From the NCBI RefSeq assembly GCF_003334405.1, contig NZ_QOWM01000001.1: DNA of 64,000 nt; one strand, 5' to 3'. A program made the position numbers and the translations under genes. The first letter of the stretch is position 1. Every line of letters starts with the position of its first letter. Source of the DNA: Escherichia coli (GTDB lineage Bacteria > Pseudomonadota > Gammaproteobacteria > Enterobacterales > Enterobacteriaceae). The notes beneath the pieces were generated by a model. It saw only the letters and a list, made by a program, of their open reading frames with translations. It made no database searches and had not been told where the DNA came from. Positions 39,702 through 43,087 of the stretch are shown here, in pieces.

Positions 39702-41774
<2,073 letters not shown>

Positions 41775-41785
41775 CTATTAAATGG

Positions 41786-41818
41786 CTGATCGGACTTGTT
41801 CGGCGTACAAGTGTACGC
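41786..41818. promoter_or_regulatory. fabB promoter operators: FadR-like site (CTGATCGGACTTGTTCG) adjoining a FabR-like palindrome (GCGTACA-AG-TGTACGC)
   Basis: Palindrome read directly; assignment to FadR/FabR comes from known fabB regulation. Confidence 0.5.
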
Positions 41819-41866
41819 TATTGTGCATTCGAAACTTACTCTATGTGCGACTTACAGAGGTATTGA

Positions 41867-43087
41867 ATGAAACGTGCAGTGATTACTGGCCTGGGCATTG
41901 TTTCCAGCATCGGTAATAACCAGCAGGAAGTCCTGGCATCTCTGCGTGAAGGACGTTCAGGGATCACTTTCTCTCAGGAGCTGAAGGATTCCGGCATGCG
42001 TAGCCACGTCTGGGGCAACGTAAAACTGGATACCACTGGCCTCATTGACCGCAAAGTTGTGCGTTTTATGAGCGACGCATCCATTTATGCATTCCTTTCT
42101 ATGGAGCAGGCAATCGCTGATGCGGGCCTCTCTCCGGAAGCTTACCAGAATAACCCGCGCGTTGGCCTGATTGCAGGTTCCGGCGGCGGCTCCCCGCGTT
42201 TCCAGGTGTTCGGCGCTGACGCAATGCGCGGCCCGCGCGGCCTGAAAGCGGTTGGCCCGTATGTGGTCACCAAAGCGATGGCATCCGGCGTTTCTGCCTG
42301 CCTCGCCACCCCGTTTAAAATTCATGGCGTTAACTACTCCATCAGCTCCGCGTGTGCGACTTCCGCACACTGTATCGGTAACGCAGTAGAGCAGATCCAA
42401 CTGGGCAAACAGGACATCGTGTTTGCTGGCGGCGGCGAAGAGCTGTGCTGGGAAATGGCTTGCGAATTCGACGCAATGGGTGCGCTGTCTACTAAATACA
42501 ACGACACCCCGGAAAAAGCCTCCCGTACTTACGACGCTCACCGTGACGGTTTCGTTATCGCTGGCGGCGGCGGTATGGTAGTGGTTGAAGAGCTGGAACA
42601 CGCGCTGGCGCGTGGTGCTCACATCTATGCTGAAATCGTTGGCTACGGCGCAACCTCTGATGGTGCAGACATGGTTGCTCCGTCTGGCGAAGGCGCAGTA
42701 CGCTGCATGAAGATGGCGATGCATGGCGTTGATACCCCAATCGATTACCTGAACTCCCACGGTACTTCGACTCCGGTTGGCGACGTGAAAGAGCTGGCAG
42801 CTATCCGTGAAGTGTTCGGCGATAAGAGCCCGGCGATTTCTGCAACCAAAGCCATGACCGGTCACTCTCTGGGCGCTGCTGGCGTACAGGAAGCTATCTA
42901 CTCTCTGCTGATGCTGGAACACGGCTTTATCGCCCCGAGCATCAACATTGAAGAGCTGGACGAGCAGGCTGCGGGTCTGAACATCGTGACCGAAACGACC
43001 GATCGCGAACTGACCACCGTTATGTCTAACAGCTTCGGCTTCGGCGGCACCAACGCCACGCTGGTAATGCGCAAGCTGAAAGATTAA
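41867..43087 (+). CDS. fabB: 3-oxoacyl-ACP synthase I (KAS I)
   Basis: 406-aa [25 protein letters not shown] with active-site cysteine context ([14 protein letters not shown]). Confidence 0.97.

Follow-up and report, generated by a model that had tools for sequence, protein, structure and literature searches.

The window that we analyzed, a 64-kb stretch of DNA, is part of the Escherichia coli chromosome and carries the divergent genes mnmC (minus strand) and fabB (plus strand), which are separated by an intergenic gap of 158 bp. A query of 601 bp around the site of interest, which includes the intergenic region and 234 bp from the 5' end of fabB, showed 100% identity to many complete E. coli chromosomes annotated with mnmC and fabB and was matched in all 5426 genomes of the E. 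coli collection. We placed the GTG start codon of mnmC at 41708, taking the annotated end of mnmC 158 bp before the fabB ATG at 41867 as the reference; the mechanical ORF list extends mnmC to a TTG at 41768. E. coli K-12 has annotated genes for both regulators considered here, fadR and fabR. The features of the intergenic region are collected in Table 1.

Table 1. Features of the mnmC–fabB intergenic region and of fabB in window coordinates; negative positions are counted from the published fabB transcription start
Feature	Position	Strand	Sequence	Remarks
fabB (beta-ketoacyl-ACP synthase I, 406 aa)	41867..43087	+		Regulated gene; from the ORF list and the annotation in genomes 100% identical over 601 bp
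fabB transcription start	41830	+		Published, RACE; 37 bp upstream of the ATG (PMC7083825)
Inferred -10 of fabB	41819..41824	+	TATTGT	Ends 5 nt before the start; overlaps the end of the FabR 18-mer by one base, the first T
Inferred -35 of fabB	41796..41801	+	TTGTTC	3/6 matches to TTGACA; overlaps the right FadR half-site; 17 bp upstream of the inferred -10
FabR operator	41802..41819	+	GGCGTACAAGTGTACGCT	18-mer enclosing the perfect 16-bp palindrome 41803-41818; -28 to -11
FadR operator	41784..41800	+	GGCTGATCGGACTTGTT	17-bp imperfect palindrome; -46 to -30, centre 41792 = -38
FabR part of the fabB composite operator			ACAAGTGT	
FadR part of the fabB composite operator			CTGATCGGAC	
CpxR box	41755..41769	+	GTAAGgctgcGCAAA	Acid-stress activator site of fabB (PMC7083825, Table 1); sequence found at these coordinates
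Predicted -35 of mnmC	41763-41768	-	TTGCGC	17-bp spacer to the predicted -10
Predicted -10 of mnmC	41740-41745	-	TAAGAT	Typical sigma-70 layout

A consensus scan called neither a promoter nor a terminator in 41600-41950, and therefore the -35 and -10 hexamers of fabB were placed from the published start site. The absent promoter call fits a weak, activator-dependent fabB promoter. Across species the -10 hexamer reads TATTGT, TATCTT, TAAAGT or TAGAGT, that is, TAnnnT is kept as expected of a -10 element. The 16-bp palindrome that a first-pass annotation, made by a reader from the sequence alone, had picked out falls wholly within the 17-bp spacer between these hexamers. The FabR 18-mer around it comprises the whole spacer and the first base of the inferred -10, which is the overlap with the core promoter that is expected of a repressor site. 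A reading of the palindrome as an RNA element was ruled out because it lies upstream of the transcription start; Rfam and tRNA scans were empty near the site.

Some further observations concern the window and the genomes compared with it. The sole RNA gene of the window, according to an Rfam gathering scan and a tRNA scan of its whole length, is a tRNA-Arg(CCT) at 17113-17187 on the minus strand. The fabB promoter region occurs twice in one or more of the 5426 complete E. coli genomes, two being the maximum number of places per genome. Genomes with 100% identity over positions 1-21000 of the window have about 6.5 kb of additional DNA between two aligned pieces, and an IS421 of 1.35 kb lies between yfcO and smrB in strain FORC 064 but not in the window (at about 34.3 kb); both differences are ordinary insertion variation among strains. 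Both fabB (41851-41859) and fabA (about 2484-2476 on the minus strand of the K-12 fabA locus, L082) have the 9-mer CTTACAGAG, with the Shine-Dalgarno region in it, ahead of their start codons. At fabB it is well conserved in Enterobacteriaceae and less so in other families, and its presence before both genes could be due to chance or to a shared post-transcriptional element.

The FadR and FabR sites

The first-pass annotation had proposed a FadR-like string followed immediately by a FabR-like palindrome, 50-80 bp upstream of fabB and fitting dual control by an activator and a repressor. We found both strings on the plus strand, CTGATCGGACTTGTTCG at 41786-41802 and GCGTACAAGTGTACGC, with perfect 7-bp arms and a 2-bp spacer, at 41803-41818; the block that they form lies 49-81 bp upstream of the ATG. 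The reading as a dual FadR/FabR operator was borne out as well, as the published sites coincide with it and matrix scans, the phylogenetic footprint and the recurrence of the arrangement at fabA agree. The FadR string corresponds to a real operator, but its register was off: the canonical 17-mer begins 2 bp further to the left (41784-41800), the annotated string includes one base of the FabR 18-mer, and the frame 41786-41802 obtained a very poor score with the FadR matrix.

The published FadR consensus is aaCTGGTCnGACC(T/A)Gtt (PMC9329746). Compared with this consensus the 17-mer has two mismatches in the 13-bp core, and the flanking AA is absent. We scanned the window with a FadR matrix trained on five fad-gene sites from the probe table of PMC4259882, with fabB excluded, and observed the 17-mer at rank 7 of ~128,000 positions (11.5 bits); with the fabA site added to the matrix it was found at rank 3. 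A strong FadR-like site that was not part of the training set, AAGTGGTCTGACCTGAT at 22960-22976, was recovered at rank 4 with 12.9 bits. It precedes the fadI ATG (23003) by 27 bp and served as positive control for the matrix within the window. The fabB site is located around -40 and overlaps the inferred -35, as expected of an activating site. The 57-bp fabB probe TCTATTAAATGGCTGATCGGACTTGTTCGGCGTACAAGTGTACGCTATTGTGCATTC, published by Feng and co-workers, is identical to 41774-41830 of the window. In gel-shift assays wild-type FadR shifts the fabB probe and FadR W60G does not (PMC4259882; PMC4537474), and the probe is bound by FadR of E. coli, Vibrio and Shewanella (PMC4537474). Expression of fabB-lacZ is 2- to 2.5-fold lower in a fadR mutant (PMC4259882).

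For FabR we trained a matrix without fabB, on the fabA and trhA sites of E. coli K-12 and the fabA site of Shewanella (PMC4537474). Applying this matrix to both strands we found 41802-41819 at the top of the window, with 17.9 bits versus 12.0 for the next match. The exact palindrome occurs once in the window, and the next-best match to it has 3 mismatches. The 18-mer fits the layout of FabR operators, an 18-bp palindrome with an ACAnnTGT core, and is similar to the fabA and trhA sites; the core motif of FabR has been given as ACAnnTGTnnnnT (PMC4804515). In the literature the same 18-mer is set off as the predicted FabR palindrome within the fabB probe (PMC4537474, Table 2), a FadR box and a FabR box are both drawn in the fabB promoter (PMC7083825), and the first detection of the palindrome is credited to a phylogenetic footprinting study (McCue 2001, as cited in PMC4804515). 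In Salmonella, ChIP and transcriptomics show that FabR occupies and represses fabB (PMC4804515), and fabB expression is increased in an E. coli fabR deletion strain (PMC9017321). For base-by-base footprints we relied on later papers that cite the primary sources (McCue 2001; Campbell and Cronan 2001; Zhang 2002; Zhu 2009; Feng and Cronan 2009/2011).

A weak FabR-like motif, GGGAAACAGGTGTACCCT, was additionally observed at 41645-41662, about 50 bp into the coding sequence of mnmC (10.7 bits, rank 5 in the window with the FabR matrix). This match probably arose by chance.

Conservation and related operators

We analyzed the upstream regions of 80 fabB loci from Enterobacterales species representatives (78-100% protein identity) and observed the near-invariant sequence CTGATCGGACTTGTTCGGCGTACAAGTGTACGCTA. 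The column identity to the window over these loci was 93% for 41784-41800 (96% for 41786-41801) and 94% for 41802-41819; in the flanks it was 41% (41773-41783) and 48% (41825-41850). The conservation of 41796-41824 is partly owed to the core promoter itself. Among complete E. coli genomes the 41-bp module 41784-41824 showed no mismatch over the aligned stretch in 5426 of 5426 cases; as at least one alignment begins at base 3, the module may be variable in its first two bases. For the 41-bp segments upstream and downstream of the module, the numbers of genomes free of mismatches over the aligned stretch were 3519 and 5203, respectively.

Deviations in this region, about 60-110 bp upstream of fabB, were seen in a few lineages. 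In Rosenbergiella (L044, L055) and Candidatus Schmidhempelia (L072) the FabR palindrome and TTGTTC are kept and the left FadR half is lost. Both sites are decayed in the mealybug endosymbiont Candidatus Gullanella (L075), and the Pantoea symbionts L064 and L065 carry point changes in the FadR core.

The arrangement recurs in the E. coli K-12 fabA promoter, which carries AACTGATCGGACTTGTTCAGCGTACACGTGTTAGCTAT (L082, 2545-2510, minus strand) with the same two regulators in the same order and, as in fabB, a 1-bp gap between the FadR 17-mer and the FabR 18-mer. Over 38 ungapped positions it agrees with 41784-41821 of fabB in 32, among them those of CTGATCGGACTTGTTC and GCGTACA..TGT..GCTAT; according to our own binomial arithmetic, the probability of this identity is of the order of 1e-13 for a single comparison. 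The two promoters differ in that the FabR site is an imperfect palindrome (AGCGTACACGTGTTAGCT) in fabA and a perfect one in fabB, and in that the FadR flank is the consensus AA in fabA and GG in fabB. Moreover, several start sites are reported for fabA but one for fabB (PMC7083825), and stronger binding of FabR has been reported for fabB than for fabA (PMC4804515).

Operators for FadR with the same 17-bp consensus are also present in the window at fadL (22252-22268 and 22276-22292) and fadI (22960-22976). The two fadL operators are published and lie, on the minus strand at 22252-22292, upstream of the fadL ORF (20850-22172, minus strand). They are nearer to the consensus than the fabB site, with 19.0 and 15.8 bits (both belong to the training set) compared to 11.5 bits, and the untrained fadI site likewise scores higher, with 12.9 bits. 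The FadR sites of the fad genes overlap the transcription start and therefore repress (PMC9329746), whereas the fabB site near -38 activates.

For FabR, the operator of trhA (yqfA), AGCTAACAGGTGTTCACT (K-12, L083, 3230-3213, minus strand), has the same ACAnnTGT core and 18-bp layout as the fabB operator but is more degenerate. FabR represses trhA (PMC9017321), for which no adjacent functional FadR site has been reported. In the trhA promoter (L083, 3247-3213, minus strand) we observed AAATCAGAATTTATTTT directly left of the FabR box. It is a degenerate and slightly longer form of the FadR-like block of fabA and fabB, and may either have been left over from a composite module or serve FabR itself as a flank. 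The FadR–FabR layout is also seen in the distant gammaproteobacterium Shewanella oneidensis, in its fabA module (GCTGATCGGAGTTGTTT AGCTTACACGTGTTCGCT). FadR binds this module in vitro, and in E. coli FabR represses a fabA-lacZ fusion (PMC4537474). There the module is located at fabA, while Shewanella fabB is reported to be without a FadR site (PMC4537474).

We regard it as highly improbable that the left block CTGATCGGACTTGTTC is kept mainly as a flanking contact of FabR rather than as an activator site of FadR, with FadR being of minor importance in vivo. In its favour, FabR without ligand reportedly depends on sequences flanking its site (PMC4804515, citing Feng and Cronan 2011), a degenerate block lies directly left of the FabR box at trhA, a target of FabR only, the effect of FadR on fabB is only about 2-fold, and a FadR site is reported to be absent from fabB of both Shewanella and Vibrio (PMC4537474). 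However, the fabB probe is shifted by FadR and not by the DNA-binding mutant, fabB-lacZ drops in the fadR mutant, and the left block matches the FadR consensus in the right register. In Rosenbergiella and Schmidhempelia, moreover, the palindrome is kept while the left block has decayed, which argues that the left block is not obligatory for a FabR site. Since the flanks are reported to matter for ligand-free binding of FabR, part of the left block may serve FabR in addition to FadR.

Slighter still is the probability that the conserved 35-bp block represents the fabB core promoter only and resembles regulator sites incidentally. It is true that the block contains or borders TTGTTC and TATTGT, both correctly spaced from the published start, and that TTGTTC survives in the genera without the left FadR half. 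However, 41786-41795 and 41802-41818 are 90-100% conserved, and neither spacers nor the bases upstream of a -35 are normally kept base for base. The spacer palindrome and the string upstream of it both recur at fabA, the FabR matrix built from other genes puts the fabB site first, and FadR binds the probe in vitro.

We also determined how often elements of this form occur by chance in the window. Perfect 7-2-7 palindromes were found 7 times versus about 3.9 expected, and palindromes with 7-bp arms and spacers of 0-4 nt 25 times versus about 19.5 expected. Searching for the FadR core CTGGTCnGACCWG with at most 2 mismatches gave 10 matches in the window versus 5.0 ± 3.0 in shuffled sequences, and searching for the ideal FadR palindrome with at most 3 mismatches gave 23 versus 17, so that no enrichment of FadR-like matches was observed in the window. 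By their bare form neither of the two elements exceeds chance in 64 kb, while their specific sequences are far beyond chance, as the matrices built without fabB, the phylogenetic footprint, the invariance in E. coli and the recurrence at fabA show independently of one another. The FadR site is recognizable solely through prior knowledge or comparison, and its match to the consensus is weak. The statement that the operator can be read directly from the sequence is thus correct for a reader with prior knowledge but not in a statistical sense. Form alone does not set either element apart from chance, and the call therefore drew on prior knowledge instead of sequence statistics; it provides a calibration case in which a reader located a real composite operator to within 2 bp. 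Although 7-2-7 palindromes and weak FadR-like matches occur near the chance rate in the window, the idea that the palindrome and the FadR-like string are functionless chance occurrences can be dismissed, as it is refuted by the cross-species conservation and the invariance in E. coli and is also opposed by the recurrence at fabA, the top motif rank and the published binding and regulation.

Control of fabB by FadR and FabR

We conclude with a probability of about 95% that the region is the known FadR/FabR composite operator of E. coli fabB itself and not just a relative of it. The binding of FadR, its approximately 2-fold effect, the repression by FabR and the start site are taken from the literature, and to these the present analysis adds the sequence and its position, the motif matches, the conservation and the recurrence at fabA. 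The dual control of fabB by FadR and FabR is already known; control of fabB and fabA by these two proteins is textbook membrane-lipid homeostasis, and the same bases have been used as binding probes. Mildly new material is limited to the conserved block under the CpxR box, which tracks the mnmC start and resembles an mnmC core promoter.

In the established mechanism, which is also the best supported here, a dimer of FadR (GntR family) would occupy 41784-41800 over the poor -35 and aid RNA polymerase at a weak promoter. Long-chain acyl-CoA would free FadR from the DNA, leading to less fabB transcription; release of FadR by acyl-CoA has been demonstrated on the Shewanella fabA probe (PMC4537474). 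One base beyond the FadR site, a dimer of FabR (TetR family) would bind to 41802-41819. Because the palindrome fills the spacer and touches the -10, we infer that FabR bound across the spacer and the edge of the -10 would exclude RNA polymerase. Unsaturated acyl thioesters would tighten the binding of FabR, and both sites together would set the expression of fabB and hence the ratio of unsaturated to saturated fatty acids.

The conserved block next to mnmC

The published CpxR box of fabB spans -112 to -98 from the start codon, with a DNase I footprint from -119 to -94 (PMC7083825). Across the 80 loci the right half of this box (GCAAA) alone is conserved. This half is formed by the block GCAAATTT (41765-41772), which is 93% conserved. 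Where the exact motif is present (about 60 of 80 loci), GCAAATTT was almost always separated from the start codon of mnmC by 57 bp; its spacing to the FadR site changes between loci, from 23 to 33-34 bp. Because the distance to mnmC is fixed and the distance to the FadR site varies, we rejected the reading of GCAAATTT as a part of the fabB promoter, be it as UP element, class I activator site or CpxR box. Loci anchored on mnmC show AAATTTGCGC, then 17 bp and then TAAGAT, TAAAAT or TAGAAT. By its sequence the segment 41740-41768 on the minus strand looks like the core promoter of mnmC, and this predicted promoter is overlapped by the published CpxR box of fabB.

The predicted mnmC promoter lies 15 bp from the FadR site, which would place FadR about 60 bp upstream of the likely mnmC start. 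This is a position used by upstream activators. We consider it unlikely that the FadR–FabR module acts on the divergent mnmC promoter too; such an action would link a tRNA wobble-modification enzyme to the fatty-acid state of the cell. The distance between the mnmC start codon and the FadR core was 79-82 bp in 52 loci, 89-92 bp in 18 loci, and 101, 114 and 121 bp in one locus each. These distances mostly differ by steps of about one helical turn, with 114 bp as the exception, and, as few independent events underlie them, give a hint of phasing between the two divergent promoters.
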